A stretch of DNA of 64,000 nucleotides, taken from positions 1,161-65,160 of the forward strand of contig JALSIP010000051.1 of assembly GCA_026989875.1 (NCBI GenBank), read 5' to 3'. Below, piece after piece: positions 2,843 to 45,077 of this stretch (positions are counted from its first letter, which is position 1; each line of letters starts with the position of its first letter). A program made the translations under genes and the position numbers. The notes under the pieces were generated by a model, which was given only the letters and a program-made list of their open reading frames with translations, ran no database searches and was not told where the DNA came from. Origin of the DNA: an archaeon (GTDB taxonomy: Archaea > Hydrothermarchaeota > Hydrothermarchaeia > Hydrothermarchaeales > BMS3B).

Positions 2843-2894
2843 AACTCTCACCCACACCTACACCACTTGCTTGCCCCTTTTATTTCTTTCGGTG

Positions 2895-2998: not shown

Positions 2999-3025
2999 AT
3001 GTTCAACAACGCTTTAACATCTCTG

Positions 3026-3044
3026 CAGAAAAATTTTTATACTA
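3026..3044 (+). promoter_or_regulatory. putative BRE/TATA promoter for the nuo/fqo operon
   Basis: cagaaaaa followed by tttttatact is archaeal BRE+TATA-like. It lies about 45 nt upstream of the nuoA start. Confidence 0.4.
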
Positions 3045-3088
3045 CCTCTGAATCATAATGGAGAGGTTGTCAGCCAGCGGGTGATACC

Positions 3089-3466
3089 TTGAGTGTGAGT
3101 GAGGCTTACCTGACTGTTGGAATATTCGTGCTGGTAGGCGTGCTATTTCCCGCGGTAACCATATTTGTGGCAAGCCTCCTTCGCAGACCTGCAAAGCCAG
3201 AGCCCGGGAAGTACCTCACCTACGAGTGCAGCGTGCTTCCCTTCACCGACGCCAGAATTCAGCACAACGTGGAGTACTACATGTACGCCCTACTCTTCGT
3301 GCTCTTTGACGTTGAGACAGTCTTCCTGTATCCCTGGGCGATGACCTACAGGAGCTTCGGCATTCTCGCAACCGCCGAAGTTATTGTGTTCATAGGCATC
3401 TTAGCCCTCGGTCTGGTTTATGCCTGGAAGAAAGGTGCGCTGGAGTGGATGAAAGGATGGAGGTAA
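3089..3466 (+). CDS. nuoA: NADH/F420H2:quinone oxidoreductase subunit A (NuoA/FpoA/FqoA)
   Basis: Three-TM protein with the NuoA signature YECSV...[15 protein letters not shown]...YPWA. TTG start. Confidence 0.85.
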
Positions 3467-3927
3467 AGCTTCCTAAGGTTATACTCACAAAGCTGGACCG
3501 TCTGGTGTTTGACCAGGCGAGACCCTACACCATGTGGCCCCTTACCTTCGGCTTAGCCTGCTGCGCCATAGAGATGATGGCGACAGGCTGCTCCCGCTAC
3601 GACGCCTTTGAGCGCTTCGGCATGCTCTTCAGGGCAACCCCCAGGCAGGCAGACCTCATGATAGTGGCTGGCACAGTCACCAAGAAGATGGCGCCCAACG
3701 TGAAGAGGCTGTACGAGCAGATGCCCGAGCCCAAGTACGTCATCGCCATGGGCGAGTGCGCCATCTCAGGCGGACCCTTCTACGACAGCTACAGCGTGCT
3801 GAACGGTGTGGACGAGATTATTCCTGTGGACGTCTACGTGCCCGGCTGCCCTCCGAGACCGGAGACGCTGATAGACGCCATAGTGAAGCTCCAGAAGAAG
3901 ATAAAGGAAGGCAGGATAGAGAGGTAG
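3445..3927 (+). CDS. nuoB: complex I-like subunit B (20 kDa, [4Fe-4S] N2)
   Basis: [16 protein letters not shown] ... GCPPRP motifs. The start may be 3445 or 3457. Confidence 0.9.
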
Positions 3928-3928
3928 C

Positions 3929-5554
3929 GTGATGGATGCGGAGCAGAGCGTAGAGCTGGAGGCAGAGCAGAAGCTTGCAGAGGAGCTTGCGGAGAGGTTT
4001 TCAGCGGAGGCAGAGCCCAAGCGCAGGCACAGGGTTGATGTGAGGGTTGACAGGAGCAGCTTCTATCAGCTTGCTGAGCATCTCAGGCATGCTGGATTTG
4101 ACCACCTCTCCTGCATAACCGGCGTTGACCTCGGGGAGAAGCTTGAGGTGGTTTACCACCTGTGGAGGCAGAGGGACAGGGTGCTTGCCGAGGTGCACGT
4201 GGAGCTGCCTGCAGAGAAGCCGGAGATAGAGAGCGTGGTCAGCCTGTGGAAGGCTGCCGACTGGCACGAGCGCGAGACCTACGACATGCTGGGCGTGGTT
4301 TTCACCGGGCATCCAGACCTGAGGCGCATCCTCCTTCCGGAGAGCTTTCAGGGGCACCCGCTGAGAAAGGACTTCAAGCTTGAGCCCCAGCCCTGGTATC
4401 GTCAGGGCAGAGCAGAGCTCTGGGAGACGGAGGTCAGGGTGGAGGCGGCTGAAGATGGAGAAACCGAAACCATGGTGCTCAACATAGGACCCCAGCATCC
4501 ATCCACCCACGGTGTGGCGAGGCTTGTCACAACCCTGAGCGGTGAGACCGTGCTCAAGGTTGAGCCCGTGATAGGCTATCTGCACAGGGGTATAGAGAAG
4601 ATATGCGAGAACCGCACCTATCCTCAGATAGTACCCATCACCGACCGCTTAGACTACATCTCAGCCATGGCAAACAATCTCGGCTACGCGCTTGCTGTGG
4701 AGGAGCTCATGGGCATAAAGGTGCCCGAGCGTGCCGAGTACCTGAGGGTTATTCTTGCGGAGCTGCAGCGCATCGCCAATCATTTAATGTTCATAGCCGC
4801 CTTCGGCGCAGACCTGGGCGCCTGGACGGTGATGATGTACGGCTTCAGGGAGAGGGAGATGGTGCTTGACCTCCTGGAGCAGGTTTCCGGGCAGCGCCTT
4901 CTCTACAACTACATCACCATCGGCGGGCTCAGGCAGGACGTGCCCCAGGGGTGGGAGGACAACGTGCGCATCTTCCTGCAGGAGCTTCCCAGGAGGCTGA
5001 AGGACTACGAGAGGTACTTCTTCAACAACGAAATCTTCCTGCGCAGGTGCAGGGGTGTGGGTGTGCTTGAGCCGGAGCTTGCGATAGAGCTTGGGGTAAC
5101 AGGTCCGATGCTCAGGGCAAGCGGGGTGGCAAGGGACCTCCGCAGGGACGAGCCCTACTCGGTTTATCCGAAGTTTGACTTTGAGGTGGTCACCGAGCAG
5201 GAGGGCGACACGCTGGCGAGGTTTGTCATCAGACTGAAGGAGATTTACGAAAGCCTGCACATAATAGAGCAGGCGCTTGACGACCTGCCGGAGGGTGAGG
5301 TTATGGCTGAAAAGGTGCCCAAGGTGCTGCGACCGCCCAAGGGGCATGCGTACTCCAGGATAGAATCACCAAAGGGAGAGCTTGCCTTCTATGTGGTCAG
5401 CGATGGCTCACCCAAGCCCTACAGGGTGAGAATCAGGAGCCCCGCCTTCTGCAACCTCTCCGCCTTCCCGCACTACTGCACTGGCGAAATTATTCCTGAC
5501 ATGATAATCAACTTCGCCAGCATAGACATTGTGATGGGGGAGATAGACAGATGA
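3929..5554 (+). CDS. nuoCD: fused complex I-like subunits C and D (30 kDa + 49 kDa)
   Basis: 541 aa. The N-terminal part is NuoC-like. The C-terminal part is NuoD/NiFe-hydrogenase-large-subunit-like (GPQHPSTHGVARL ..., C-terminal DIVMGEIDR). Confidence 0.9.
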   Translation: MMDAEQSVELEAEQKLAEELAERFSAEAEPKRRHRVDVRVDRSSFYQLAEHLRHAGFDHLSCITGVDLGEKLEVVYHLWRQRDRVLAEVHVELPAEKPEIESVVSLWKAADWHERETYDMLGVVFTGHPDLRRILLPESFQGHPLRKDFKLEPQPWYRQGRAELWETEVRVEAAEDGETETMVLNIGPQHPSTHGVARLVTTLSGETVLKVEPVIGYLHRGIEKICENRTYPQIVPITDRLDYISAMANNLGYALAVEELMGIKVPERAEYLRVILAELQRIANHLMFIAAFGADLGAWTVMMYGFREREMVLDLLEQVSGQRLLYNYITIGGLRQDVPQGWEDNVRIFLQELPRRLKDYERYFFNNEIFLRRCRGVGVLEPELAIELGVTGPMLRASGVARDLRRDEPYSVYPKFDFEVVTEQEGDTLARFVIRLKEIYESLHIIEQALDDLPEGEVMAEKVPKVLRPPKGHAYSRIESPKGELAFYVVSDGSPKPYRVRIRSPAFCNLSAFPHYCTGEIIPDMIINFASIDIVMGEIDR

Positions 5555-6582
5555 GCGAGCTGGTGTGGAGCATACTGAAGGCGCTGGTGGGTGTGGTGGC
5601 GGTGATACTGTTCCTCTCCCTCAACGTTCTCTTTCTCACCTGGATGGAGAGGAAGGTAATTGCAAGGATTCACGTGCGCTACGGTCCAAACAGAGCAGGA
5701 CCCTTCGGGCTTCTCCAGCCCATAGCCGACATGCTGAAGCTGCTCACCAAGGAGGACATAGTGCCCGAGAAGGCTGACCGCATAGTGTTCAACCTCGCCC
5801 CTATTATGGCGTTCCTCTTCGCCCTGCTGCCTGCTGCGGCGATAGGCATAGGCAGCGGGCTCATAGCGGCAGACCTGCCGGCTGGCGTGCTCTACATAGC
5901 GGCGGTGGCATCGCTCTCAACCATAGCGGTGCTCATGGCTGCCTGGGGCTCAAACAACAAGTACTCCCTTCTCGGCGGGATGCGTACCGCTGCCCAGAGC
6001 CTGAGCTACGAGATACCCCTGGTGCTCAGCATGCTGGGTGTGGTGGCGATAGTGGGCTCGCTGAGCACCCAGGACATAGTTGAGGCGCAGTCCTCAGCCT
6101 GGTTCGGCATAATCCCCAAGTGGTTCATCTTCTACCAGCCCATAGCATTCATCGTGTTCCTCTCGGCGGTGGTTGCGGAGATGGGCAGGATACCCTTTGA
6201 CCTGCCGGAGAGCGAGTCCGAGCTTGTGGCAGGCTTCCACACCGAGTACAGCGGCATGAAGTTTGCCATGTTCATGTTCGCCGAGTACATCCACTTCGTG
6301 GTGGGCTCGGCGCTTCTCGTCACCCTGTTCTTAGGCGGCTGGCATCTGCCGGTGGTAACCCCGCTCGCAGAGAGCCTGGGCGTGCTCAAGTACGTGGTGC
6401 AGGTGGCGGTGTTCGTGGCGAAGATGTATGCTGTAATCTTCCTGCTGATGTGGGTCAGGGGCACGCTCACCAGGACCAAGGTGAACGACATGCTTGGCTT
6501 CGGATGGAAGGGGCTGCTCCCGCTGGCACTCTTCAACGTGGTGCTCACGGGAGTGGTGCTCACCCTGAGGGGTGGTGCGTGA
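5551..6582 (+). CDS. nuoH: complex I-like subunit H (membrane, quinone site)
   Basis: 343 aa, polytopic, with NuoH/ND1 motifs (RVGPNRVGP-like YGPNRAGPFGLLQP). Confidence 0.9.
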   Translation: MSELVWSILKALVGVVAVILFLSLNVLFLTWMERKVIARIHVRYGPNRAGPFGLLQPIADMLKLLTKEDIVPEKADRIVFNLAPIMAFLFALLPAAAIGIGSGLIAADLPAGVLYIAAVASLSTIAVLMAAWGSNNKYSLLGGMRTAAQSLSYEIPLVLSMLGVVAIVGSLSTQDIVEAQSSAWFGIIPKWFIFYQPIAFIVFLSAVVAEMGRIPFDLPESESELVAGFHTEYSGMKFAMFMFAEYIHFVVGSALLVTLFLGGWHLPVVTPLAESLGVLKYVVQVAVFVAKMYAVIFLLMWVRGTLTRTKVNDMLGFGWKGLLPLALFNVVLTGVVLTLRGGA

Positions 6583-7040
6583 TGCTTCAGAAGCTGAAGA
6601 ACCTCTCACACCTGCTGCCCATGAGCGTGACCTTCAAGCACCTCTTCAAGCCCCCCATCACCCTGCAGTACCCCGAACAGAGGCAGCAGCTCAAGCAGAG
6701 GTACAGGTGCCTGCAGAGGCTGGACGTGAAGAAGTGCATAAGCTGCGGCAACTGTGCGAGAGCCTGCCCCAACGGTGCCATCAAGATGAAGGTGGTGGGC
6801 ATAGAGGAGAAGAAGGTGAAGGATAAGGTGGTGAAGAAGGAGAAGAAGCATCCCGAGATTTACTTGGGAAGGTGCATGTTCTGCGGGCTGTGTGTTGATG
6901 CCTGCCCGGTTAAGGCGCTCACCTGGCGCAACGACGTTCTGGAGCTTGCCGAGTACACGAGGGAGGAGCTCTTCTATCCCTGGTGGAAGCTTGCGGGGTA
7001 TGAGGTTGAGCCGGCTAAGGAAGGGGGGAGCGGGCAGTGA
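6582..7040 (+). CDS. nuoI: complex I-like subunit I (2x[4Fe-4S] ferredoxin)
   Basis: Two CxxCxxCxxxCP motifs separated by a Lys-rich insert (EEKKVKDKVVKKEKKH). The ATG at 6582 overlaps the nuoH stop (ATGA). The longer ORF from 6450 is rejected because it overlaps nuoH. Confidence 0.85.
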   Translation: MLQKLKNLSHLLPMSVTFKHLFKPPITLQYPEQRQQLKQRYRCLQRLDVKKCISCGNCARACPNGAIKMKVVGIEEKKVKDKVVKKEKKHPEIYLGRCMFCGLCVDACPVKALTWRNDVLELAEYTREELFYPWWKLAGYEVEPAKEGGSGQ

Positions 7041-7534
7041 TTCAGGAGCTGGTGTTTCTGGTGATATCCCTCTTCGTGATAGCGGGCGCCGCAGGGGTGG
7101 TGTTTGCCCAGCGGCTGTTCCATGCGGTTCTCTCCTTGGCGCTCTGCCTGCTCTCGGTGGCTGCAGTTTACATCACCCTGGGTGCTGAATTTCTCGCGGT
7201 GATACAGGTGCTGGTTTATGCTGGTGGAGTGGTGGTGCTGTTCCTCTTTGCGGTCATGCTCACGAGGAGCGACCTGCAGCTCAGGCGGGAGCCCCTGGAG
7301 AGCTTTGCCCCCGTGTCAGCGGTGCTCTTCGGTGTGCTGGTGCTCTTCTACATCGCAAGAACAGGCTTCGTGCCTCAGGGCGAAAGAGCCCTTGCCCCCG
7401 GGGATGTGGCGAGCGTGGGGCAGGTGATATTCTCACCCAAGGCTTATGCTCTGCCCTTTGAGCTTGTGGGCATACTGCTGCTTGCGGCGATGGTCGGAGC
7501 CATATACCTGGCGAGGAGGGATGAGCGGTGGTAA
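7037..7534 (+). CDS. nuoJ: complex I-like subunit J
   Basis: 165 aa hydrophobic protein. Position and size fit NuoJ. Confidence 0.8.
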   Translation: MIQELVFLVISLFVIAGAAGVVFAQRLFHAVLSLALCLLSVAAVYITLGAEFLAVIQVLVYAGGVVVLFLFAVMLTRSDLQLRREPLESFAPVSAVLFGVLVLFYIARTGFVPQGERALAPGDVASVGQVIFSPKAYALPFELVGILLLAAMVGAIYLARRDERW

Positions 7535-7830
7535 CGGTGTACCACTATGTGTTTCTGGCGGCGGTGCTCTTCATAATAGGCGCCTACGGCATGCTTTCAG
7601 CGAGGAATGCCGTGAGGGTGCTCATGAGCATTGAGCTCATGCTGAACGCTGCAAACATCAACCTGGTTGCCTTCTCCAGCTACTCTGGCACTGTGAGCGG
7701 GCAGGCGCTTGCTTCCTTTGTCATCGCGGTGGCTGCAGCCGAGGCGGGTGTGGGCATAGCCATTCTCTTGGTGCTGTACAGGAGAATGAGAAGCGTGAAC
7801 CTGCGTGAGGCAGTGAGCATGAGGTGGTGA
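7528..7830 (+). CDS. nuoK: complex I-like subunit K
   Basis: 100 aa, three TM segments. NuoK/ND4L-like, with a conserved Glu in a TM segment. Confidence 0.8.
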   Translation: MVTVYHYVFLAAVLFIIGAYGMLSARNAVRVLMSIELMLNAANINLVAFSSYSGTVSGQALASFVIAVAAAEAGVGIAILLVLYRRMRSVNLREAVSMRW

Positions 7831-9671
7831 AGATGGTGGCTGAGTACTCCTGGCTGATACCCGTGTTTCCCCTGGCATCCTTTGTGCTCATCCTGCTCTT
7901 CGGCGGCAGGCTCAGAGAGGGTGGCGGGCACCTGGCTGTTGCTGCAGTGGGTGCGAGCATGCTTCTTTCGCTTGCTGTTATCTCGCACGTGGTGCGCTTT
8001 GGCAGCTATGAGAGCAGGGGCATCTCCTGGTTCGGCAGCGAAGCCTTCAGGTTCGGCGTGCTGGTGGACCCGCTGTCTGCGGTGATGCTGTTCGTGGTGA
8101 GCTTCGTGGGCTTCCTGATAGTGGTTTACTCCCTCGGATACATGCACGGCGACCCGGGGGTGCAGCGCTACTATGCCGAGATCTCCCTCTTCATAGCCAG
8201 CATGCTCTCCTTGGTTATAGCCAACAACCTGGTGTTCATGTTCATAAGCTGGGAGCTGGTGGGGCTCTGCTCCTACCTGCTGATAGGCTACTGGTACCGC
8301 AAGCCCAGTGCTGCCAGCGCAGCCAAGAAGGCGTTTCTCGTAACTAGGGTGGGTGACATCCTCTTCTTGGCTGGAATACTGGTGGTCTACAGGGAGTTCG
8401 GCACCCTGAACCTGAGCGAGGTGTTTGAGCTTGCTCCCGGGGTGGCGACAGCCACGCTCACCTTAGCCTCGCTGCTGCTCTTCGGCGGAGCCGTGGGCAA
8501 GAGCGCCCAGTTCCCGCTGCATGTGTGGCTCCCTGACGCCATGGAGGGTCCCACCACCGTCAGCGCCCTCATACATGCTGCGACGATGGTCAAGGCTGGC
8601 GTTTACTTGGTCGCCAGGATGTACCCCCTCTTCACCCCCGAATCCCTGCACGTGGTTGCCTGGATAGGCGGAATAACCGCCTTCATCGCAGCCAGCATGG
8701 CTGTAGTGATGACGGACCTGAAGAGGGTGATAGCCTACTCCACCGTCTCCCACTTGGGCTTCATGACCCTCGCCCTGGGTGTTGGAGGCTACGCCGCGGG
8801 CATCTTCCACCTGCTCAACCACTCCTTCTTCAAGGCGCTGCTCTTCCTGAGCGCGGGCGCTGTGCTGCATGCTGTGCACTCCCAGGACATACGGGACATG
8901 TCAGGGCTGTGGCGCAGGATGCCTGTAACGGGAACCGCCTTCTTCATAGGCGCCTGGTCGCTTTCAGGTCTGCCCCCCTGGAGCGGCTTCTGGAGCAAGG
9001 ACGAAATCATGGCGGCGGTGCACAGCTACAGCACGCCCCTCTTCTGGCTCACCGCGGTTACGGCGCTTCTCAGCGCGGTGTACATCTGGAGGCTGTTCTT
9101 CATAGTCTTCACGGGCAGGGAGAGCGAGCAGGCTAAGCATGCGCATGAAGCACCCTTGGTGATGCGGATACCCCTGATAATCCTCTCCCTGGGTGCGCTC
9201 TTCTCAGGCTTTGTGGTCTTTGCGGGCTTTGGCGAGTTCGTGCAGGGGGCTCTTGAGCATGCCCCCGAGGCAGCAGAGCACGCCTCCGGCAGCGTGATGC
9301 TGCTGAGCATCCTGCTGGCAGCCACTGGCACGGGGCTTGCGGCACTGACCTACTACCGTCCTGTGATTTCAGCCGCGAGGGTGAGGCGTGCCCTCGCCCC
9401 CGTGCACACCCTGCTGGTCAACCGCTACTACTTGGACCACCTGTACTACTTCTTTGCCACACGAGTGGTTGCGGACAGCGCAAGGGCTCTGAGAGGCGTT
9501 GACGAGTTCATAGTTGACGGCACCGTAAACGGCACGGGCAGGGCGGCGGTGTGCTCGGGCAGGAAGCTGCGTCTTCTGCAGAGTGGAGTGGTGCAGGACT
9601 ACGCCTCCTGGGTGCTTGCGGGTGCCTTCCTGCTGCTTGTGATTGCAGGGCTCATAGGAGGTGGTGTGTAG
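7824..9671 (+). CDS. nuoL: complex I-like antiporter-type subunit L
   Basis: 615 aa. Mrp/NuoL family motifs (WLPDAMEGPTTVSALIHAATMV). Confidence 0.9.
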   Translation: MVKMVAEYSWLIPVFPLASFVLILLFGGRLREGGGHLAVAAVGASMLLSLAVISHVVRFGSYESRGISWFGSEAFRFGVLVDPLSAVMLFVVSFVGFLIVVYSLGYMHGDPGVQRYYAEISLFIASMLSLVIANNLVFMFISWELVGLCSYLLIGYWYRKPSAASAAKKAFLVTRVGDILFLAGILVVYREFGTLNLSEVFELAPGVATATLTLASLLLFGGAVGKSAQFPLHVWLPDAMEGPTTVSALIHAATMVKAGVYLVARMYPLFTPESLHVVAWIGGITAFIAASMAVVMTDLKRVIAYSTVSHLGFMTLALGVGGYAAGIFHLLNHSFFKALLFLSAGAVLHAVHSQDIRDMSGLWRRMPVTGTAFFIGAWSLSGLPPWSGFWSKDEIMAAVHSYSTPLFWLTAVTALLSAVYIWRLFFIVFTGRESEQAKHAHEAPLVMRIPLIILSLGALFSGFVVFAGFGEFVQGALEHAPEAAEHASGSVMLLSILLAATGTGLAALTYYRPVISAARVRRALAPVHTLLVNRYYLDHLYYFFATRVVADSARALRGVDEFIVDGTVNGTGRAAVCSGRKLRLLQSGVVQDYASWVLAGAFLLLVIAGLIGGGV

Positions 9672-11116
9672 TGCTCCAGTACCTCATACTCCTGCCGCTT
9701 GCAGGCGCCATCGCGAGCTATTTCGCCGGCAGGCAGAGCAGCTCAGCCCCCAGGATAGTTGCCCTGGCGGTTAGCGTGGCAACCCTCGGCATAGCGGCGG
9801 CGGTGCTCAGAGCTGCTCCAGCCCAGGGGTTCATGAAGGAGCAGCTCAGCCTGAGCTGGATACCCAGCTTAGACATAGGCTTCACCCTCGGTGCTGATGC
9901 CCTGAGCGCGGCGCTGGTGGGGCTGACTGCACTTCTGGTGCTGGTGTCGGTGCTCGCTTCCTGGGATGTGGAGCACCGCTCCGGAAGCTACCACGCCTAC
10001 CTGCTGTGCATGCTTGCAGGTTTGATGGGCGTTTTCACGGCGCTTGACCTGTTCCTCTTCTTCCTGTTCTGGGAGATTGTGCTCATTCCCGCCTTCATGC
10101 TGGTAAACGGCTGGGGTGGAGAGAACAGGAAGTATGCAGCCATGAAGCTGCTCATCTACACCCACCTGGGCAGCCTGCTCATGCTGGTGGGCTTCCTGCT
10201 GATGTATGCACAGACGCACACCTTCTCCATGCTTGAGATGCGCCAGCTTCTCGGCGGAGAGAGCATGGAGTACAGGACGCTGGTGTTCCTGCTGGTTTTC
10301 GCGGGCTTCGCCTTCAAGATTCCCTTAGTGCCCTTCCACTCCTGGCTTCCGGATGCATACTCCCAGGCACCCACACCTGTGACAATCCTGCTTGCGGGGG
10401 TGCTCTCCAAGATGGGTGCCTACGGTCTTGTGAGGGTGGCTCTCGGCATCCTCCCGGCAGAGTTTGCGGTGTTCGCAAAGGCTATAGCGATAATGGCTCT
10501 GGTCACCGTCTTCTATGCAGCATTCTGCGCCCTTGCCCAGAACGAGGTTAAGCGGCTTCTCGCCTTCTCCAGCCTATCCCACATGGGCTTCCTGGTGCTG
10601 GGTGTGGCGAGCCTCTCCTTCATAGGCATGAAGGGCGCCATATTCCAGATGGTCAGCCACGGGCTGATAATAGCGCTGCTCTTCTTCTGCGCGGGCATGC
10701 TGGCGGCGAGGGGCTACGAGCTCAGAATCTCAAGGCTGGGCGGCGTGCTCAGGAGCTCGCCGCTGCTCGGCTGGGTCATAGTGTTTGCCTCCATGGCTTC
10801 TCTCGGGCTTCCGGGGCTGAGCGGCTTCGTGGCTGAGCTCAGCATTCTGCTGGGTCTGTTCCGTGAGTATCCCGTACTGGCGGGCATAGCTGTGCTCTCC
10901 CTCCCCCTGACAGCCGGCTACTACCTGTGGTTCCTGCAGCGCTCAATATACGGGGGCGATGCCGGGCTCAGGAGGAGCGGCGTAACCATGGTGGAGTTCC
11001 TGCCCGTTGCGGTTCTTGTTGCTCTGATAACCCTGCTCGGCGTTTACCCGGCACCCTTCATGGAGCTGGTTGGCAGCATAGCAGGGCAGCTTGTAAATGC
11101 GGTAGGAGGTGGCTGA
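9671..11116 (+). CDS. nuoM: complex I-like antiporter-type subunit M
   Basis: NuoM/ND4 motifs (FHSWLPDAYSQAPTPVT). Start is taken at the GTG overlapping the nuoL stop. The longer ORF from 9551 is rejected as an N-terminal extension. Confidence 0.85.
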   Translation: MLQYLILLPLAGAIASYFAGRQSSSAPRIVALAVSVATLGIAAAVLRAAPAQGFMKEQLSLSWIPSLDIGFTLGADALSAALVGLTALLVLVSVLASWDVEHRSGSYHAYLLCMLAGLMGVFTALDLFLFFLFWEIVLIPAFMLVNGWGGENRKYAAMKLLIYTHLGSLLMLVGFLLMYAQTHTFSMLEMRQLLGGESMEYRTLVFLLVFAGFAFKIPLVPFHSWLPDAYSQAPTPVTILLAGVLSKMGAYGLVRVALGILPAEFAVFAKAIAIMALVTVFYAAFCALAQNEVKRLLAFSSLSHMGFLVLGVASLSFIGMKGAIFQMVSHGLIIALLFFCAGMLAARGYELRISRLGGVLRSSPLLGWVIVFASMASLGLPGLSGFVAELSILLGLFREYPVLAGIAVLSLPLTAGYYLWFLQRSIYGGDAGLRRSGVTMVEFLPVAVLVALITLLGVYPAPFMELVGSIAGQLVNAVGGG

Positions 11117-12560
11117 AGTGCTGGCGGAGCTTCTTCCGGAGATTCTGCTGATAGGTGCGGCGCTGCTGCTGGTGCTACTCCAGGGCTTCTGCGGCAGGGA
11201 TGCCTGCGCAAAGCTTTCTGGCTACATCTCCTTAGCCGCATGCGGGGGCGCGCTGCTGCTGGTGTCCCTGCACTCTGGAGCGGGTGTTGAGCGCGTGCTC
11301 ATCCCTGAGATAATAAAGCTGGACGCCTTCAGCCTGTTCTTCAAGCTTCTCTTCCTCACCCTGAGCTTCCTGGTGATTCTGGGGTCTCTTGATGCGGTGA
11401 AGCGCTACAGGATGGGCGGCGAGTACTACACCATGCTGCTCTTCACCACCTTCGGCATGCTCATAGCAAGCATGGCGGTTGACCTGGCGGTGCTCTACAT
11501 AGCCGTGGAGCTTGCCACCATCTCAACCTTTGCGCTCGCCGCCTTCAGAAAGGACCGCCAGGGAGCAGAGGCTGGTGTGAAGTACTTCGTGATAGGTGCG
11601 CTCTCCTCGGCGCTGGTGCTCTTCGGCATATCCCTGCTCTACGGCATCGCCGGGAGCACCTCCCTCACCGCCATAGCGGAGGCGCTCGGAAGCTCCTCCG
11701 GTCCGGTGGCAAGCCTGGCGGTGGTCTTCCTCATCGCAGGCTTCGGCTACAAGATTGCGGCGGTGCCCTTCCACATGTGGGCGCCGGACACCTACCAGGG
11801 TGCACCCTCCACCGTCACCGCCTTCCTGGCGGGAGCCACAAAGAAGATGGCGTTCCTGGCGCTCATGCGCATCTTCATCGTGGCGCTCCCCGGGCTGGTG
11901 GAGAGCTGGGCGATGCTGTTTGCGGTGCTCGCGGTGCTCACCATGACCGTAGGCAACCTGGTGGCGCTGGTGCAGAGCAACATAAAGCGCATGCTCGCCT
12001 ACTCCAGCGTTGCCCAGGCAGGCTACGTGCTTGTGGCCTTTGCGGTGCTCTCCTCAAAGGCTGACCTCACCCTCGCCGCGGGGGCGGCGCTGCTGCACAT
12101 GTTCGTGCACGCCATAATGAAGGGCGGCGCCTTCCTGGCGGTGGCGGCGGCGGGCTCGGCAATCGCCGGCAGGGATATCTCCGACTTTGCCGGGCTTGGC
12201 AGGCGCATGCCGGTGACAGCCTTCACCCTGAGCATATTCCTGCTCTCCCTGGCGGGGATACCCTTCTTTGCCGGCTTCGTGAGCAAGTTCCTGATACTCA
12301 TGGCGAGCGTGAGCGCTGGCGGTGCCTACATAGCCCTGGGCGTGCTCCTGGTAATAAACAGCGTCATCTCCCTCTACTACTATGCTAAGGTGATAAGGGT
12401 GATGTACTTTGAGGGAGGGGAGGTGCACAGAGCAGAGGAGCCCGTGATGCTGGTTGCGGCGCTGGTGGTCTCAGCGATAATCGTGCTCTACGTGGGCATC
12501 TTCCCGGAATCTGCAATACAGCTGGCGAAGAGCAGCGCAGCCTCCCTCTTCACCCCCTGA
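11109..12560 (+). CDS. nuoN: complex I-like antiporter-type subunit N
   Basis: 483 aa. NuoN/ND2 motifs (FHMWAPDTYQGAPSTVTAFLA). Confidence 0.85.
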   Translation: MAEVLAELLPEILLIGAALLLVLLQGFCGRDACAKLSGYISLAACGGALLLVSLHSGAGVERVLIPEIIKLDAFSLFFKLLFLTLSFLVILGSLDAVKRYRMGGEYYTMLLFTTFGMLIASMAVDLAVLYIAVELATISTFALAAFRKDRQGAEAGVKYFVIGALSSALVLFGISLLYGIAGSTSLTAIAEALGSSSGPVASLAVVFLIAGFGYKIAAVPFHMWAPDTYQGAPSTVTAFLAGATKKMAFLALMRIFIVALPGLVESWAMLFAVLAVLTMTVGNLVALVQSNIKRMLAYSSVAQAGYVLVAFAVLSSKADLTLAAGAALLHMFVHAIMKGGAFLAVAAAGSAIAGRDISDFAGLGRRMPVTAFTLSIFLLSLAGIPFFAGFVSKFLILMASVSAGGAYIALGVLLVINSVISLYYYAKVIRVMYFEGGEVHRAEEPVMLVAALVVSAIIVLYVGIFPESAIQLAKSSAASLFTP

Positions 12561-26346: not shown

Positions 26347-27517
26347 GTGGGAGTTCTGGTGCACTGTGAGGAGGAAGGAGTACATCCTCGCCACGGTGCT
26401 GACACCCATATTCGCACTCCTCGTGTTTTCGCTGCCATCACTGCTGGTGGAGCACGGAGGTGGCGTGTACACGGTGGGGTATGTGGACCGCACCGGAATG
26501 TTTGAGCTCCCCGGGAGCGCCAGCTCTGGCATGGCAGGCAGGAGCGGCGAGAGCTACGTGTTTGTGAGGTACAGCAGCGAGCAGGAGGCTGAGCGTGAGC
26601 TGCTGGCGGGTGAGCTCAGCATGTACATGGTGATTCCCGAGGACTACATGGAAACCGGGAGGGTTGAGGTGTACACCACCAGGACACTGCCGCTGCTGCC
26701 TGTGGATGTGATTTCACAGAGCCTGGTGAGGCAGATGCTTGAGGGCAGGGTGGAGGATGAACGGCTGGTGGAGAGGGCGAGCAAGCCGGTGGAGCTGAGG
26801 GTGTACAGGCTGGATGAGAGGGGGGAGAGCAGAATGAATCTCGCCTCCTACATGGCTCCGGTAGCCACGGGGATGCTGCTGATGTTGGCGCTGGTTATCT
26901 CTTCTGGCTTCCTGGTGCACAGCATGAATGAGGAGAGGGAGAGCAGAATGCTGGAGGTGCTGCTGTCTTCAGCTTCTGCAGAGCAGGTGGTGGCAGGGAA
27001 GCTGCTGGGACTTGGCAGCGCGGGGCTGCTGCAGATGCTCGCATGGCTGGGCATGCTCTTACCTGTAGCAATAGTGCTTGCGGCTGAGGTTGAGCCTCAG
27101 ATGCTGCTGCTCGTGCTGGGATACTTCCTGCTGGGTTTCCTGCTGTACGCCTCAATAATGCTGGGCGTGGGCGCGGTGTGCTCCTCGCCAAGGGAGGCAC
27201 AGCAGCTCATGGGCGTGCTGGTGCTCAGCGCGGTGCTGCCCTTAGCCTTCGGGTTTATAATCTTCCAGAACACAGAAAGCACAGCCGCCAGAGCGGTGTC
27301 ACTTTTCCCGCTCACAGCACCCGTGAGCATGGTGTACCGCAGCTCCATGGGAGGCGTGCCCCCGGGTGAGCTGGTGCTCAGTGCGGTGCTGCTCCTCGCC
27401 TCCGCAGCGCTCACGCTGAAGCTCTCGGCAAGGCTGCTTATGGCGGGAATGCTGATGCGGGGCAAGGGCATGACAGAGGTGCTGAAGAGCCTGCTGACTC
27501 CGAAAGATTTATATTAA
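26300..27517 (+). CDS. ABC-2 family transporter permease
   Basis: 405 aa with an N-terminal TM, a large extracytoplasmic loop and five C-terminal TM segments. ABC-2/NatB-like topology. It is downstream of the ATPase. The start may be 26324. Confidence 0.75.
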   Translation: MSEWWRRMRGALVVAKWEFWCTVRRKEYILATVLTPIFALLVFSLPSLLVEHGGGVYTVGYVDRTGMFELPGSASSGMAGRSGESYVFVRYSSEQEAERELLAGELSMYMVIPEDYMETGRVEVYTTRTLPLLPVDVISQSLVRQMLEGRVEDERLVERASKPVELRVYRLDERGESRMNLASYMAPVATGMLLMLALVISSGFLVHSMNEERESRMLEVLLSSASAEQVVAGKLLGLGSAGLLQMLAWLGMLLPVAIVLAAEVEPQMLLLVLGYFLLGFLLYASIMLGVGAVCSSPREAQQLMGVLVLSAVLPLAFGFIIFQNTESTAARAVSLFPLTAPVSMVYRSSMGGVPPGELVLSAVLLLASAALTLKLSARLLMAGMLMRGKGMTEVLKSLLTPKDLY

Positions 27518-27542
27518 TGATAAATCATGATAAATCCTGACG

Positions 27543-29024
27543 GTGGTTCTGATGAAGCTTCCGCAGGCATTGCTCAGGTGCAGTGTTGAGCCTCTCATAG
27601 AGGAGAGCAACCTGGTGAGAGAGGCTAAGCAGGTTAAGTCGCTGGCTTACGTGGCGCTGCCGTGTCAGATGCAGGCTGTGAGAAAGGCGCAGCTCATGCT
27701 GCACAGAACACGCCAGGAGTGGCCCAGAAAGGTTAAGCTGGTAATCGGGCTGTTCTGCGCGGAGAGCTTCCCCTATGAGGAGCTGGTGAAGGTTGTGGAG
27801 AGCAAGGGGCTCAGCATGGACAGGATACGAAAGTGGGACATAAAGGGCAAGCTTCTGGGGTATCATGAGGAGGGCGTGCTCAAGATATCCCTGAAGGAGG
27901 CGAAGAAGTTTGCCAGAAGCAACTGCAGGTACTGCACCGACTACACCGCGGAGCTTGCTGACGTGAGCATAGGCGCGGTGGGCTCTGCTAAGGGCTGGAA
28001 CACGGTGATTGTGAGAACCCTGAGGGGGCTGAAGGCTGTCAGGGGCGCCATTGAGGCAGGTTATCTGGAGGTCAGGGAGCCTGACCTGGAGGGCGAGCGC
28101 GGGATACCGCTGCTGCGCAAGCTTGCCAAGCGCAAGCTCAGCACGGCAAAGAAGAACAGGGGCAAGGCTGAGGAGAAGGGCATGCGTGTCATGCACTTAG
28201 AGACCATGCACGAGAGAGACCTGAAGAAGCTTGAGGAGATGACAACAAAGGAGCACCGCATTGATGAGCTCCTCAGGGATGTGGTTGAGCCGGGGCTGTG
28301 CGTTACCTGCGGCGTCTGCGAGGCGGTTTGTGCGGAGAGCATCATAAAGATAGGTGAGGATGGCATGCCCCGCAAGCTCAGGGACTGCGAGTCCACGGAC
28401 TGCGGCAGGTGCTATGCCCTGTGCCCGAGGACCACGCTGCCCGCAGATGCGATTGAGGAGGAGCTCTTCGGAATCAGGAGGGTCAGCTACGAGGCAAGGG
28501 TGCTGGGGCAGTTCATAGAGATTCTGTCCTGCAGGGCTGGCAGGGAGGCTATCAGGAAGGTGGGGCAGGACGGCGGCGCTACAACGGCGCTGCTCGCATA
28601 CCTGCTGGATACCGGAGAGGTAGATGCAGCGGTGAGCGTCACTCAGGGGGAGAAGCCCTGGTATCCGGTGAGCTTTATCTCAACCACCAGCGGAGATGTG
28701 CTGAGATGCGCGGGCACAATTTACAGCACCGCCCCCACCATAGTGGCTGTGAAGCGTGCCCTGAGCCAGCACGAGGACTTCAGGAGGTACCTGAACTTCC
28801 TGCGTGAGAGGGGGCTGCTGCCGGAGCTGGAGCTGGTGGAGAGGCTGGCGAAGCCGCCGCTGGCTGCAGAGACGGCGCAGGTGGATGAGGAGGAGCTGAT
28901 GGCAAGAAGAAGAAAGGTTGAGGCGGCGATTGAGAGGCTGGCAAAGCCGGCGGTGAAGATGATGGTTGAGCAGGGCAAGGCTGAGAGGGCGGTTGAGCTG
29001 GTGGTGAAGGAGGGCGATGCATGA
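27543..29024 (+). CDS. F420-binding FrhB/FpoF-family oxidoreductase with circularly permuted domain order (FrhB_C - 2x[4Fe-4S] - FrhB_N)
   Basis: aa 35-170 carry the FrhB C-domain motifs (ALPCQMQAVRK...GLFC...C.YC.DYTAELADVSIGAVGS...TVIVRT). The middle region has CVTCGVCEAVC and C....CGRCYALCP. aa 330-400 carry the FrhB N-domain motif GQDGGATTALLAYLLDTGEVDAAV. The gene has its own TATA at 27508-27515. Confidence 0.7.
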   Translation: MVLMKLPQALLRCSVEPLIEESNLVREAKQVKSLAYVALPCQMQAVRKAQLMLHRTRQEWPRKVKLVIGLFCAESFPYEELVKVVESKGLSMDRIRKWDIKGKLLGYHEEGVLKISLKEAKKFARSNCRYCTDYTAELADVSIGAVGSAKGWNTVIVRTLRGLKAVRGAIEAGYLEVREPDLEGERGIPLLRKLAKRKLSTAKKNRGKAEEKGMRVMHLETMHERDLKKLEEMTTKEHRIDELLRDVVEPGLCVTCGVCEAVCAESIIKIGEDGMPRKLRDCESTDCGRCYALCPRTTLPADAIEEELFGIRRVSYEARVLGQFIEILSCRAGREAIRKVGQDGGATTALLAYLLDTGEVDAAVSVTQGEKPWYPVSFISTTSGDVLRCAGTIYSTAPTIVAVKRALSQHEDFRRYLNFLRERGLLPELELVERLAKPPLAAETAQVDEEELMARRRKVEAAIERLAKPAVKMMVEQGKAERAVELVVKEGDA

Positions 29025-29821
29025 GGCTGGGTGTGCTGAAGACAGGGAACATAGCCACGTCTCTGGTGCTGGAGCTGCTGCTGGATGAGCGCGCCGACAG
29101 GGAGCTGGAGGTGGATGTTTTTTCCACAGGCGCAAAGATGAGCCCGAAGGATGCTGAGAGGCTGCTGTCCTCGGTGAGGCTTGACAGCTACGCTCTGGTG
29201 GTTTATGTTACTCCAAACCCGGCAACTCCGGGACCGAAGAGGGTTATTGAGGCGCTGGCTGGAAGAAGAGCGGTGGTAATAGGGGATGCGCCGGGGATGA
29301 AGCTCAGGGACTGGCTGGAGGAGCTGGGGCTGGGGTACATCTTCGTGAAGGCGGACGCGATGATAGGCGCGAGGCGGGAGTTCCTGGACCCGAATGAGAT
29401 GGTGCTCTTCAACTCGGACATGCTCAGGGTGCTGGCGGTAACGGGCGCACTGAGGGTTGTGCAGGAGGAGATTGACAGAGCCATTGAGAGCAGCGATTAC
29501 CTGCCACGAGTGGTGGTGGATGCAGAGCTTGCGGCTGAGGCGGCTGGCTTCACCAGCCCCTACGCCAGAGCTAAGGCGATTGCCGCGTACAGGGCGTGCT
29601 CCTTAGTGGCTGAACTGAACACCTCCGCCTGCTTTGGCATGAAGGAGATGGAGAGGTATGTGCAGACCTGCGCTGCCGCCCACGAGCTGCTGCACTCCCT
29701 TGCGGAGATGTGCGATGAGGCGCTGGAGATGGAGAAGCACCAGGATTCGCTGCTCAGAACACCCCACGCCAGGGACGGCAGGAGGCTTAGAAAGCGCAGG
29801 CTGATGGAGAAGCCGGGGTGA
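29021..29821 (+). CDS. mtd: F420-dependent methylene-tetrahydromethanopterin dehydrogenase
   Basis: Strong Mtd signature throughout (GNIATS..LELLLDERADR, TPNPATPGPK, VVIGDAPGMKLRD, GLGYIFVKADAMIGARREFLDPNEM, LRTPHARDG). 266 aa. Confidence 0.9.
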   Translation: MRLGVLKTGNIATSLVLELLLDERADRELEVDVFSTGAKMSPKDAERLLSSVRLDSYALVVYVTPNPATPGPKRVIEALAGRRAVVIGDAPGMKLRDWLEELGLGYIFVKADAMIGARREFLDPNEMVLFNSDMLRVLAVTGALRVVQEEIDRAIESSDYLPRVVVDAELAAEAAGFTSPYARAKAIAAYRACSLVAELNTSACFGMKEMERYVQTCAAAHELLHSLAEMCDEALEMEKHQDSLLRTPHARDGRRLRKRRLMEKPG

Positions 29822-30576
29822 TGCTGACCTTCTCCCTTCCGCTGCCCGCAGGCACCTGCGATGCCTGCGGCGCATGCGTGTATGCCTGTCCGGAAGGCGC
29901 TGTTACGCTGGATGAGAGGCACAGGCTGAGGGTGGAGCATGAGAGGTGCACCCGCTGCCTCAGGTGCGTTGAAGCATGCAGGGACAGGGAGGCGCTCAGG
30001 CCCGAGCTGCACGGCTACCTGCCTGGCTTTGACTGCTCGGAGTGCGGCTATGAGGACTGCGAGAGCTTTGCCGAGGGTGTGACTCAAGCGGAAGAGCTGC
30101 GGAGGTGCCCCCACCTCGGCGGGAGGATGCGCAGGGCGCTGGAGCTGATTCTCAGGAGCGAGCTACTGCCGGAGGTCAGGGTGAGCGACAGCCAGCTTCC
30201 AACGCCTCACGGCGTGTTTCCCGTGGGGAGCCCCGGGAAGCGTTCGCCTGTAATTGCCACCTCCGACTACCTGCACACGGTTATGACGCTCACTGCAGCG
30301 CTTGAGCACTGCAGCATAGACGCTTACTTAGCGGTGGTGCCGGCTGAGGGGTACTGCATGAGGCTTGCGGTTACCCTGGGAACGCTGAGGCTTGAGAGGC
30401 TGCCCGAGATTCTGAGGGAGGTGGAGCACAGGGTTGAGCACAGGGTGGTGATTCTGCCCAGGGCGGTGGAGACAAGACGGGCTGGCAGCTGGAGGGTGGT
30501 GCATGCCCCGAGCAGGGCTGAGGAGCTCCCGGCGTTTCTCTTAGCCTTTTCCAGGGCTTACGGGCTGAGGGTCTGA
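29818..30576 (+). CDS. iron-sulfur protein: 2x[4Fe-4S] ferredoxin + RnfB-N-type Fe-S domain (CxxCGxxxCxxFAE) + uncharacterised C-terminal domain
   Basis: CDACGACVYACP and CTRCLRCVEAC, then DCSECGYEDCESFAEG (PF04060-like). The C-terminal ~130 aa have no recognised homolog. ATGA overlap with mtd. Confidence 0.6.
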   Translation: MMLTFSLPLPAGTCDACGACVYACPEGAVTLDERHRLRVEHERCTRCLRCVEACRDREALRPELHGYLPGFDCSECGYEDCESFAEGVTQAEELRRCPHLGGRMRRALELILRSELLPEVRVSDSQLPTPHGVFPVGSPGKRSPVIATSDYLHTVMTLTAALEHCSIDAYLAVVPAEGYCMRLAVTLGTLRLERLPEILREVEHRVEHRVVILPRAVETRRAGSWRVVHAPSRAEELPAFLLAFSRAYGLRV

Positions 30577-31741: not shown

Positions 31742-33025
31742 GTGCTGGCGGTGAAGTTTGTTTACCCTGACTTTCTCTCAGGCTATGCCTGGCTGCAGTT
31801 CGGCAGGCTTCGCCCGGTGCACGTCACCTTAGCTGCCTTCGGCTGGCTCTCCATGGTGCAGGTGGCAATGGCTTACTACGCCGTGCCCCGCCTTGCTAAG
31901 CGGGAGCTGTACAGCGAGAGGCTTGCAAGGCTGAGCGTGCTCCTCTGGAACCTCTTCATCCTCCTCGCCGCCGCAACGCTTCTTGCAGGAATGACGCAGG
32001 GCAGGGAGTATGCAGAGCTTGTCTATCCCCTTGACCTGCTCTTCCTGCTGCTTCTGGGCGTGGTTGCCTACAACCTGGTGCGCACGGTTCTGGCAAGGAG
32101 GGAGGAGAAGCTCTACGTCAGCCTCTGGTACTTCCTGGCGGCGCTGGTGTGGATGCCGGTGGTTTACTTTGTGGGCAACGCCATGTGGGCTGGAGGAGCG
32201 CTCTACGGTGTTAACGACGCCATAGTCAACTGGTTCTACGGGCACAACATCTTAGGGCTGTGGTTCACGCCCCTCGGCGTGGGTGCTGCCTACTACCTGC
32301 TGCCGAAGCTGGTGAGGAAGCCCCTCTACAGCCACAGGCTATCGCTTCTGGGCTTCTGGACGCTGGGGCTCTTCTACCCCTGGGTGGGTACCCACCACCT
32401 GATTTTCGGTCCCGTACCCGTGTGGGCGCAGACGGTTGCAATTGCCGCAAGCGTTGCCATGCTTCTGCCCGTGCTGGCGGTGACGGTGAACTTCTGGAAG
32501 ACCATTGAGGGCAGGTGGCACCTGCTCTCGCAGGCGGAGCAGGGCAGGCGCTTTGCCCAGAGCGACTGCACAGCTTTAAAGTTTCTGGTGCTGGGAGGAG
32601 TGTGGTACCTGCTCACCTGCCTGCAGGGTCCCTTCCAGGCGCTAAGGGCTGTGCAGCCGTATGTGCACTTCACCAACTGGGTTGTGGCACATGCCCACCT
32701 TGCCCTTCTTGGAGCCTTCAGCTTCTGGGGGTTTGCGTGCATCTACTACGTCATGCCCAGGCTGACCGGTAAAGAGCTCAGCCCGCGGCTTGCAAGGGCT
32801 CACTTCTACCTGCTCACCCTCGGCTTGAGCGGCTTCGTGGCGAGCCTCACCATAGCGGGGCTGATTCAGGGTAGCTCGTGGCAGGCGGGTGTGGCTTTCG
32901 TGAAGGTGGTGGCGGCGCTTAAGCCCTACCTAATCGTAAGGCTTGCCTCGGCGGCGCTCATGGTAGCCTCGGTTTATCTCTTCCTGTACGCCTTCTTCAG
33001 CTCGCTGCGGGGGGTGCAGAGGTGA
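31742..33025 (+). CDS. ccoN: cbb3-type (C-family) heme-copper oxidase catalytic subunit CcoN
   Basis: Ligand patterns are R..H...AAFGW (heme b His), WFYGHN (CuB His), GTHHLIFGP (CuB HH) and VVAHAHLALLG (heme b3/b His). Only 427 aa from the first canonical start. An in-frame upstream hydrophobic segment (31634-31741) would supply TM1. Confidence 0.8.
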   Translation: MLAVKFVYPDFLSGYAWLQFGRLRPVHVTLAAFGWLSMVQVAMAYYAVPRLAKRELYSERLARLSVLLWNLFILLAAATLLAGMTQGREYAELVYPLDLLFLLLLGVVAYNLVRTVLARREEKLYVSLWYFLAALVWMPVVYFVGNAMWAGGALYGVNDAIVNWFYGHNILGLWFTPLGVGAAYYLLPKLVRKPLYSHRLSLLGFWTLGLFYPWVGTHHLIFGPVPVWAQTVAIAASVAMLLPVLAVTVNFWKTIEGRWHLLSQAEQGRRFAQSDCTALKFLVLGGVWYLLTCLQGPFQALRAVQPYVHFTNWVVAHAHLALLGAFSFWGFACIYYVMPRLTGKELSPRLARAHFYLLTLGLSGFVASLTIAGLIQGSSWQAGVAFVKVVAALKPYLIVRLASAALMVASVYLFLYAFFSSLRGVQR

Positions 33026-33897
33026 GGGCGCTGAGCATAGCCGCTGGAGTGGCGGCGCTGGTGCTTGCCGCGATTGCCGTTACGGTGCTTTTACCCATGG
33101 GCGACCCCTCGCTGTACCAGCCGTCTCCAGGGGTGAAGCCCCTTAATGAGCTGGAGGAGATGGGAAGGCAGGTGTACATCCGGGAGGGATGCTGGTACTG
33201 CCACACCCAGCAGGTGCGCAACCTGAGCATGGATGTGCAGTACTACGGCAGGGTTTCCTCTCCCGGCGAGTACGCCTATGATTCGCCGGTGCTCCTGGGC
33301 ACGGAGCGCACAGGTCCTGATCTGGCGAGGATTGGCGGGGTTTACACCGACGACTGGCACTTAGCGCACTTCATCAACCCCCGCTACGTGGTGCCAGCTT
33401 CTATAATGCCCAGCTTCTCCTACCTGAGCGATGATGAGCTGGAGGCGCTTATCGCCTACGTGCAGAGCCTGGGCGGTGAGGAGGCGAGGAGAAAGGCTGA
33501 GATGCAGCGCAGGATGAAGCAGGCGATGCTGGAGGCGCAGCGCTTGGGCATAGAAGAGGAGATGATGCAGGCGAGGGTGCCGGCGAGCTACAGGGGGCTT
33601 GAGAATCCGCTGGCAGGCAGAGAGGCGGTGCTTGTGGGGAAGAGGCTGTTCGCCTTCTACTGCAGAGGCTGCCACGGCAGCGCTGGCGCTGGAGATGGTC
33701 CTGCTGCGAGGTACCTTAACCCCAGGCCTGCCAACTTCACCAGCGCGGAGTTCATGGGTAGCGTGGAGGACGGCAGGCTCTACTACTCCATACTGAACGG
33801 TGTGCCGGGCACGGCGATGCACCCCTTTAAAGCCAGGCTGACGGAGCAGGAGGTGTGGAGCTTAGTAGCCTACCTGCGCACGCTTCAGGAGGAGTGA
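33022..33897 (+). CDS. ccoO: cbb3 oxidase cytochrome c subunit: CcoO-like mono-heme domain fused to a second c-type heme domain (CcoP-like)
   Basis: N-terminal TM; GRQVYIREGCWYCHTQ; CcoO signature GTERTGPDLARIGG.Y.D.WH. A second CRGCHG heme site sits in a C-terminal cytochrome c domain. Confidence 0.8.
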   Translation: MRALSIAAGVAALVLAAIAVTVLLPMGDPSLYQPSPGVKPLNELEEMGRQVYIREGCWYCHTQQVRNLSMDVQYYGRVSSPGEYAYDSPVLLGTERTGPDLARIGGVYTDDWHLAHFINPRYVVPASIMPSFSYLSDDELEALIAYVQSLGGEEARRKAEMQRRMKQAMLEAQRLGIEEEMMQARVPASYRGLENPLAGREAVLVGKRLFAFYCRGCHGSAGAGDGPAARYLNPRPANFTSAEFMGSVEDGRLYYSILNGVPGTAMHPFKARLTEQEVWSLVAYLRTLQEE

Positions 33898-33898
33898 G

Positions 33899-34033
33899 AT
33901 GGAGGGCTATGAAGCTGCGATAGCCGCGATGGTGCTCCTGAGTCTGGGCACGGCTCTGGCGCTGCTCTGGGCGGTGAGAGCAAAGCAGTTTGATGAGGAG
34001 CCCAAGTACAGGATGCTTGAGGATAAGGATTAA
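33899..34033 (+). CDS. ccoQ: small single-TM protein, CcoQ/FixQ-like (44 aa)
   Basis: MEGYEAAIAAMVLLSLGTALALLWAVRAKQFDEEPKYRMLEDKD. A strong SD, GGAGGAGTGA, lies 5 nt upstream. The start overlaps the ccoO stop. Not in the ORF track because it is under 60 aa. Confidence 0.5.
   Translation: MEGYEAAIAAMVLLSLGTALALLWAVRAKQFDEEPKYRMLEDKD

Positions 34034-42908: not shown

Positions 42909-45077
<2,169 letters not shown>

Follow-up and report, generated by a model that had tools for sequence, protein, structure and literature searches.

A circularly permuted FrhB/FpoF-family protein encoded beside mtd in Hydrothermarchaeota, a candidate ferredoxin:F420 oxidoreductase

Analysis of a 64,000-nucleotide stretch of an archaeal contig assigned to the Hydrothermarchaeota (JALSIP010000051.1, positions 1,161 to 65,160; hereafter the window) identified a gene of the FrhB/FpoF family whose protein domains occur in a re-ordered chain. 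The coding sequence lies at 27552–29024 on the forward strand, as do all features described below unless noted otherwise. The sequence comparisons indicated that the gene product is a true circular permutant, fixed in evolution, of an FpoF-type protein, in which a ferredoxin domain is followed by the FrhB N-domain and then the FrhB C-domain, and not a mosaic. The architecture, its conservation, the synteny and the conservation of residues were observed directly in the window and in related genomes.

Pfam profile searches placed the FrhB_FdhB_C domain (PF04432, aa 32–181, E 7.5e-43, 146 bits with a cut-off of 23.3) ahead of the FrhB_FdhB_N domain (PF04422, aa 328–403, E 1.4e-22, 80 bits with a cut-off of 22), with a ferredoxin-type module between them. 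Both domains of the FrhB/FdhB/FpoF superfamily were matched significantly, but not in the canonical order of N before C. A sequence-only reading of the window had proposed exactly this arrangement of C-domain, ferredoxin and N-domain, and the profile search agreed with it. The FrhB_FdhB_C domain (27636–28085) contained the cysteines of its [4Fe-4S] site (C41, C72, C128 and C131 in 493-residue numbering) and the C..C.D...E..D.S.G motif, and these residues were invariant. It is followed by a helical linker (28086–28280) that joins the old C-terminus to the ferredoxin domain, with helices predicted at 185–208, 214–217, 224–230 and 237–245. The first part of this linker was homologous to the C-terminal helix of FrhB, and a phmmer alignment with FrhB (3ZFS_C) extended to query residue 211. 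The ferredoxin-type module (28281–28439) has two Cys motifs, CxxCxxCxxxC and Cx4CxxCxxxCP, and the FrhB_FdhB_N domain (28524–28751) carries the QDGG and G..Y motifs, of which Q, G, G, G and Y were invariant.

Four segments of the query, the C-domain (C), the ferredoxin module (F), the N-domain (N) and the tail (T), were each located separately in 120 homolog clusters. The permuted order was present in 27 of the 120 clusters, and all the remaining clusters were F-N-C or N-C. Among the permuted clusters, P0001–P0012 were C-F-N-T (the tailed form), about 487 aa long and 56–100% identical to the query, and 15 more were C-F-N without the tail, about 345–380 aa long and 37–42% identical to the query. 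When nine F-N-C relatives were doubled, query residues 5–400 aligned collinearly across the junction with 38–41% identity over 342–366 columns, and the alignment scores were 487–601 compared with 288–355 against single copies. An even identity over the C, F and N parts is expected if all three derive from one F-N-C ancestor.

Solved sequences gave the same picture. FrhB (3ZFS_C) residues 2–92 corresponded to query residues 317–407, and its residues 94–277 to query residues 28–211. In the closest solved sequence, the zeta subunit of a carbon monoxide dehydrogenase (CODH; 8RIU_B, E 5e-55), residues 10–173 corresponded to query residues 238–406 and residues 176–346 to query residues 29–203. As the FrhB and 8RIU_B segments both break at the short linker between the N- and C-domains, this linker would be where the chain was cut. 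In addition, the terminal helix of the N-domain of standard proteins was recovered directly after the query N-domain (E 6e-14). The alignment with doubled relatives and these segment matches bore out the earlier suggestion that the protein is a circular permutation of FpoF. In the history we propose, an ancestor with the order ferredoxin domain, FrhB-N, FrhB-C would have been opened at the N/C linker, and its old C-terminal helix would have been joined to the 2x[4Fe-4S] ferredoxin domain at its former N-terminus. This would yield the order FrhB-C, linker, ferredoxin, FrhB-N, to which the tailed clade would have added an N-terminal extension of 28 aa and a helical tail of 90 aa.

The residues that characterize the standard proteins were retained in the permuted chain. 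All 25 of the 25 columns conserved at ≥85% in 91 standard relatives were kept in the query, and also in nearly all permuted members; these columns include QDGG, G..Y, the four cluster Cys and C..C.D...E..D.S.G. An AlphaFold2 model built from a 25-sequence alignment was confident, with a mean predicted local distance difference test score (pLDDT) of 84 and a predicted template modeling score of 0.79. The best structural neighbors of this model were FrhB, the CODH zeta subunit, Fsr, an FdhB-like Hdr-associated subunit and FwdI, and FrhG matched its ferredoxin module structurally. In a neighbor-joining tree calculated on re-ordered domains the permuted proteins formed one split in 109 of 200 bootstraps, and the tailed clade was recovered in 200/200.

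The ferredoxin module contained eight Cys in two motifs, the second with Cx4C spacing. It matched residues 10–83 of the CODH zeta subunit 8RIU_B, a ferredoxin domain with two clusters, and the C-terminus of FrhG (E ~8e-8), and NCBIfam likewise gave a small match of aa 229–303 to the C-terminal ferredoxin part of FrhG. Pfam Fer4 dicluster models matched aa 247–299 weakly (E 5e-4 to 3e-2). The two Cys motifs and the homology to 8RIU_B and FrhG support the ferredoxin assignment despite these weak scores, and the module presumably binds 2x[4Fe-4S].

An order of C-ferredoxin-N is also the product expected from a chimeric join of two tandem Fer-N-C genes, so that a misassembly, frameshift or pseudogene, with the 3' portion of one frhB-like gene fused to the 5' portion of the following one, had to be considered. 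We regard the chance of such an artefact as negligible. The identical 490-aa protein was present on two independently assembled contigs, and the full-length, stop-free architecture was found at 37–89% identity in 24 species-level genomes and in many metagenomes. The tail-less members have clean boundaries, beginning 2–5 residues before the C-domain and ending just after the N-domain, and the gene is preceded by a conserved promoter and Shine-Dalgarno sequence. The sequence-only reading had likewise judged an assembly artefact unlikely.

The survey of orthologs, for which one genome per GTDB species was scanned, identified 24 species-representative loci with the permuted order, nearly all in Ca. 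Hydrothermarchaeota; the next 56 loci all had the standard order. The carriers included Pyrohabitans JdFR-16 and -17, Hydrothermarchaeum profundi JdFR-18, and S14x_esom and SZUA metagenome-assembled genomes (MAGs), as well as one Archaeoglobaceae MAG. The closest species locus was that of Hydrothermarchaeota isolate S140_74_esom (L024), at 89% identity. In an exhaustive search of 50%-identity representatives, which returned 6710 family proteins at E ≤0.001, about 15 C-F-N clusters were among the best 150 of the 6710 matches.

The permuted gene is immediately followed by mtd (29021–29821), encoding F420-dependent methylene-tetrahydromethanopterin (H4MPT) dehydrogenase, with which it shares a 4-nt overlap (ATGA). 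This neighbor had already been named as mtd from the letters alone, and its identity was confirmed by Pfam MTD (E 1.3e-100) and NCBIfam NF002162 (330 bits, cut-off 297). For the tailed form, all gene-called contexts had mtd directly behind the permuted gene, within -4 to +3 nt, and so did six of the six GTDB loci with downstream sequence. The tail-less forms fell into two groups. One group precedes mtd (including L022, L023, L027 and L036), and the other, represented by nine GTDB loci, lies immediately 5' of porG-porD-porA-porB, often with ftr after. In the latter the permuted gene is the first of a porGDAB operon (e.g., L008 8001–12958, L009 6001–10970 and L012 6001–9976; also L026, L029–L035 and L037), which makes these POR-linked genes candidates for subunits of an F420-reducing pyruvate/2-oxoacid oxidoreductase in Hydrothermarchaeota. 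No hydrogenase genes were found in any of the gene-called permuted contexts.

In the closest relatives of standard order (P0025 and the ANME-1 locus L039) the gene comes directly behind porA-porB. In L215 (54–3311), L216 (2859–6116) and L039 (10–1264) an frhB-like gene was observed right after this gene pair, and neither porG nor porD was called nearby. The ferredoxin domain that these standard relatives carry might replace the delta subunit of POR; if so, the association with POR may predate the permutation. A further arrangement was seen in L030, where a standard-order frhB-like gene (2579–3697) and a permuted gene (4989–6104) lie on the same strand 1.3 kb apart, with the standard gene upstream. 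We considered whether this pair could be a permutation intermediate and rejected the idea, as an arginase-family gene lies between the two and they are mere neighbors.

Based on these features, we consider it reasonably probable that the permuted protein is the dedicated ferredoxin (Fe-S):F420 oxidoreductase of the methyl branch in the H4MPT pathway, where it would serve Mtd. We infer the cofactor content, the redox partner, the direction of electron flow and the regulation. As the residues of the [4Fe-4S] and FAD/F420 sites are all intact, the usual electron path is expected, which would run between an external Fe-S donor or acceptor, the clusters of the ferredoxin domain, the FrhB [4Fe-4S] cluster and flavin adenine dinucleotide (FAD), with hydride exchange with F420 at the end. 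The gene would be co-transcribed and translationally coupled with mtd. In one direction, the protein would supply F420H2 for the step of Mtd (and that of Mer) in the H4MPT Wood-Ljungdahl pathway; when the pathway runs oxidatively, the protein would remove F420H2 from the Mtd/Mer steps.

Published work contains several parallels. Archaeoglobus fulgidus, which is without Frh, was proposed to make F420H2 by ferredoxin:F420 oxidoreduction (PMC4543118), and soluble FpoF, according to work cited in the same paper, catalyzes this reaction. In Ca. Ethanoperedens, FrhB-type modules link both CODH and Fwd with F420 (PMC11493965), and in ANME-1 FrhB paralogs are encoded beside PFOR and CODH genes (PMC9012536). 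The report by Carr et al. that most JdFR Hydrothermarchaeota have only the Frh ‘beta subunit’ (PMC6775978) fits stand-alone FrhB homologs such as the permuted protein.

Several observations weigh against this interpretation or limit it. The N-terminal extension and the tail fall outside what it accounts for, and no redox partner is conservedly encoded beside the mtd-linked permuted genes. The Fer4 matches, at 14–20 bits, were under the gathering cut-offs of 22–35, and some tail-less relatives have a degenerate second Cys motif. The structural aligners used are sequential and covered only ~190 residues, and the equivalent placement of the N-half in three dimensions is putative. Finally, the tree backs a single origin for the permutation only moderately. 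With respect to the degenerate motif, an alignment of P0001 residues 250–291 showed the first Cys of motif 2 missing in P0013–15, and P0026–28 retained only two or three Cys. Loss of a cluster is possible in these proteins because of this degeneration, and they may bind one cluster or a 3Fe cluster.

A closer relationship with Mtd can be envisaged, in which the permuted protein and Mtd form a stable complex that acts as a ferredoxin-dependent methylene-H4MPT dehydrogenase, with F420 shuttling between the sites and the tail serving for docking. The gene pair is tightly and translationally coupled while the proteins diverge to 56% identity, and the conserved, structured 90-aa tail is confined to an mtd-linked clade. 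In addition, the POR-linked sisters resemble operon-encoded subunits, and FrhB-type modules are bound in CODH and Fwd complexes (PMC11493965). However, Mtd has no Fe-S cluster or flavin to which the module could be wired, and a complex is thus unnecessary for electron transfer. The tail-less permuted forms are also mtd-linked, which shows that the tail is not required for the association with mtd. Based on these considerations we think a stable complex rather unlikely.

The apparent operon contains a third gene (29818–30576), which overlaps mtd by 4 nt and encodes a 252-aa protein with a 2x[4Fe-4S] ferredoxin, a PF04060 ‘FeS’ domain and a corrinoid-binding-type domain like those of CdhD, the CdhE C-terminus and HgcA. 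The PF04060 domain is as in the N-termini of RnfB and CdhE, and the protein resembles a corrinoid Fe-S protein without the barrel. With its three predicted Fe-S sites, the CdhE-C/HgcA-like domain and the overlap with mtd, this protein could be a dedicated Fe-S partner that takes the place of free ferredoxin and couples F420H2 to the reduction of a corrinoid or other cofactor. The third gene was found in L001 and L002 but was absent downstream of mtd in L003–L007; every other tailed-form lineage examined lacked it in the operon, and its product therefore cannot be a general partner. We consider a dedicated partner of this kind very improbable.

The window also contains a cluster for a Nuo-like complex of 11 subunits (3089–12560), with NuoA, B, CD (fused), H, I, J, K, L, M and N. 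The sequence-only reading had pointed out that this Nuo/Fqo-like complex lacks an F420-oxidizing input subunit, and indeed neither NuoEFG nor FpoF was found in the cluster, and no second FrhB-like gene was found in the window. The permuted protein had been put forward as a candidate either for this missing input or for a new F420-dependent oxidoreductase, and the second of these proposals is closer to the evidence. As an FqoF/FpoF-like subunit, the protein would dock its ferredoxin domain on the 11-subunit complex and pass electrons from the F420H2 of Mtd/Mer to the quinone pool. Its domain content equals that of FpoF, and linkage with mtd would suit oxidation of F420H2 when the pathway runs oxidatively. 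However, the cluster lies 15 kb from the permuted gene, with Rad50/Mre11-like, KaiC-like, translation and transporter genes, unrelated and on both strands, in between. In Methanosarcina mazei fpoF is encoded apart from the fpo operon, and distance alone therefore does not exclude such a role.

Other observations were less favorable to an FqoF-like role. No nuo/fqo genes were found within 5–10 kb of any permuted locus examined; the partners were instead mtd or porGDAB, and linkage to POR, not to Fqo, was seen for the sister clade as well as for the closest standard relatives. The score with the FpoF NCBIfam model was far under its cut-off (130 versus 475). Complexes of this eleven-subunit type can accept electrons from ferredoxin without FpoF, as in the Methanosaeta case cited in PMC4543118. 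By analogy, the Nuo-like cluster of the window is probably ferredoxin-driven, like other FpoF-less complexes. The link between the permuted protein and this complex, being one of co-residence in the window alone, is unsupported, and we judge the FqoF-like role improbable.

The open reading frame of the permuted gene is uninterrupted from 27543 to 29024, as had been claimed, and encodes 493 aa if it is read from the GTG at 27543. We believe that the true start is probably the ATG at 27552, giving 490 aa, because the GTG falls inside a Shine-Dalgarno-like GGTGG (27542–27546) and because the orthologs begin at the equivalent ATG, as does the database protein P0001 (490 aa, 100% identity). The Shine-Dalgarno-like sequence lies 5 nt upstream of this ATG, and the orthologs have AGGTGG or AGGAG at equal distance.

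Two segments of the protein are specific to the tailed clade. The N-terminal extension of ~28 aa (27552–27635) had a pLDDT of ~58 and no detected homology. The helical tail of 90 aa (28752–29021) was conserved, with a mean column identity of 67%; Pfam found no domain at aa 404–493, and comparison of a tail profile with sequences in the Protein Data Bank (PDB) returned nothing significant (best E 0.05). The tail may serve docking or oligomerization. We also considered whether the N-terminal extension could be a relic of a tandem duplication, derived from the end of the N-domain. An hhalign comparison with the protein's own post-N segment gave E 0.41, and one with the interdomain segment of the 91 standard relatives gave E 0.05 over one column. 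Neither was significant, so a local alignment of P0023 that reaches into the extension is not evidence for such an origin.

The permuted gene has its own TATA box, as the sequence-only reading had stated. The archaeal promoter at 27502–27516 consists of a purine-rich GAAAGA (27502–27507), resembling a B recognition element, and the TATA box TTTATATTA (27508–27516); the ABC-2 permease gene upstream has a stop codon that overlaps this promoter. The TATA box was conserved in orthologous loci, and an arrangement of gAAAag-TTTATATTA / TTTAAAT was common to all the tailed-form loci aligned. We infer the promoter function from the archaeal promoter consensus.

A conserved 17-nt element, ATGATAAATCATGATAA, abuts the TATA box at 27517–27533. 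It is composed of two direct ATGATAA(A/T)T units spaced 10 bp apart (one helical turn), with a central palindrome, ATCATGAT. The element occurred once in the window, where zero matches were expected even with up to three mismatches. An exact, single copy was present in each of 15 tailed-form loci (L001–L007, L015–L021 and L024) and in L185, although the encoded proteins are only 56–89% identical. The element is probably an operator bound by a regulator; it lies between the TATA box and the point at which transcription is expected to begin, which suggests an operator of the repressor type. Its GATAA repeats loosely recall Fur-type boxes. Some tail-less loci had GATAA repeats near TATA boxes, inconsistently. 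A search of 27350–27700 against Rfam for a structured 5' leader, the 17-nt element included, gave no match. When metagenome contigs were scanned for the element, at least 120 matches were obtained, almost all in unrelated AT-rich DNA, and among the matches listed L185 was the only further permuted-frhB/mtd locus.

These threads can be combined, although we hold the combination with low confidence and offer it as speculation. The permuted protein would be docked by its tail to Mtd in a machine with captive F420, making the methenyl/methylene-H4MPT step ferredoxin-dependent, while its tail-less sister would make POR F420-reducing. The 17-nt operator would switch the operon, and the permutation would have been selected for the repositioned ferredoxin domain and termini.

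Apart from these genes, the window contained genes for a cbb3-type oxidase and a KatG-type catalase-peroxidase (31742–34033, forward strand, and 42909–45038, reverse strand). The cbb3-type genes encode CcoN/COX1 of ~424 aa, CcoO/FixO with cytochrome c domains, and a small FixS. One metabolic survey explicitly excluded O2 as an electron acceptor for the Hydrothermarchaeota phylum (PMC6946796).

The fold and chemistry of the permuted protein are already known; its chain topology, the partnership with mtd, the tail and the probable operator are new, and a full-text literature search found no description joining FrhB with circular permutation. In databases the permuted proteins are named ‘coenzyme F420 hydrogenase subunit beta’ or ‘hypothetical’, and annotation of this kind can mislead metabolic reconstructions into inferring a hydrogenase. 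FrhB-type modules serve universally as the adaptor that connects Fe-S electron chains with coenzyme F420, and recent structures have shown that modules plugged into CODH and Fwd can re-route catabolism. The conserved permuted clade indicates that such a module tolerates a re-ordered chain. The protein is a concrete candidate for the supply or disposal of F420H2 in non-methanogenic archaea that use the H4MPT pathway, apparently without Frh (Hydrothermarchaeota, and Archaeoglobus-like archaea). A pyruvate oxidoreductase that reduces F420 is a possibility raised by its POR-linked sister clade, and the invariant putative operator could offer a handle on regulation in an uncultured phylum.

Comparison with known systems set the permuted protein apart from each of them. 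The best NCBIfam matches were to FrhB and FpoF, each in two pieces and each sub-threshold. In FrhB (PDB 4OMF/3ZFS/4CI0, 9R51 and 6QGR) the two halves are in the opposite order, and the score against the FrhB equivalog TIGR03289 was 209.5 bits, below its cut-off of 331.5. In Frh the ferredoxin role is held by the separate FrhG, whereas the permuted protein carries the ferredoxin domain in cis; it also has the extra tail, and no frhA, frhD or frhG genes lie nearby. FpoF/FqoF has the same inventory as the permuted protein, a 2x[4Fe-4S] ferredoxin with FrhB-N and FrhB-C, and the activity reported for soluble FpoF in work cited in PMC4543118 is the one proposed here. However, its order is Fer-N-C and not C-Fer-N, the permuted protein scored 130–134 bits against cut-offs of 475 (NF040616) and 444 (NF006808), and in the loci examined the permuted genes were never beside fpo, fqo or nuo.

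The query, in permuted order, spanned the whole length of the CODH zeta subunit of Ca. Ethanoperedens thermophilum (8RIU_B; PMC11493965). Like the permuted protein, CODH zeta and FwdI (8RJA_E) are FrhB-type modules that join a low-potential Fe-S chain to F420, but they have the standard order and are bound subunits of Fe-S enzymes encoded in cdh/fwd clusters. The partner of the permuted gene is mtd, whose product, unlike CODH and Fwd, has no Fe-S cluster, and in this respect the protein does not resemble an enzyme-bound module. Among the permuted forms, only the tail-less sister clade, in its porGDAB operons, is encoded with a ferredoxin-dependent Fe-S enzyme. The nearest standard-order relatives, at 40–46% identity per domain, are those of the ANME-1 ‘FrhB6’ type in PFOR clusters (PMC9012536) and of the porA-porB-frhB-like loci (P0025 and L039). 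They share linkage to POR with the tail-less permuted sister clade, but are Fer-N-C and encoded downstream of porB, whereas the permuted forms are encoded upstream of porG or mtd.

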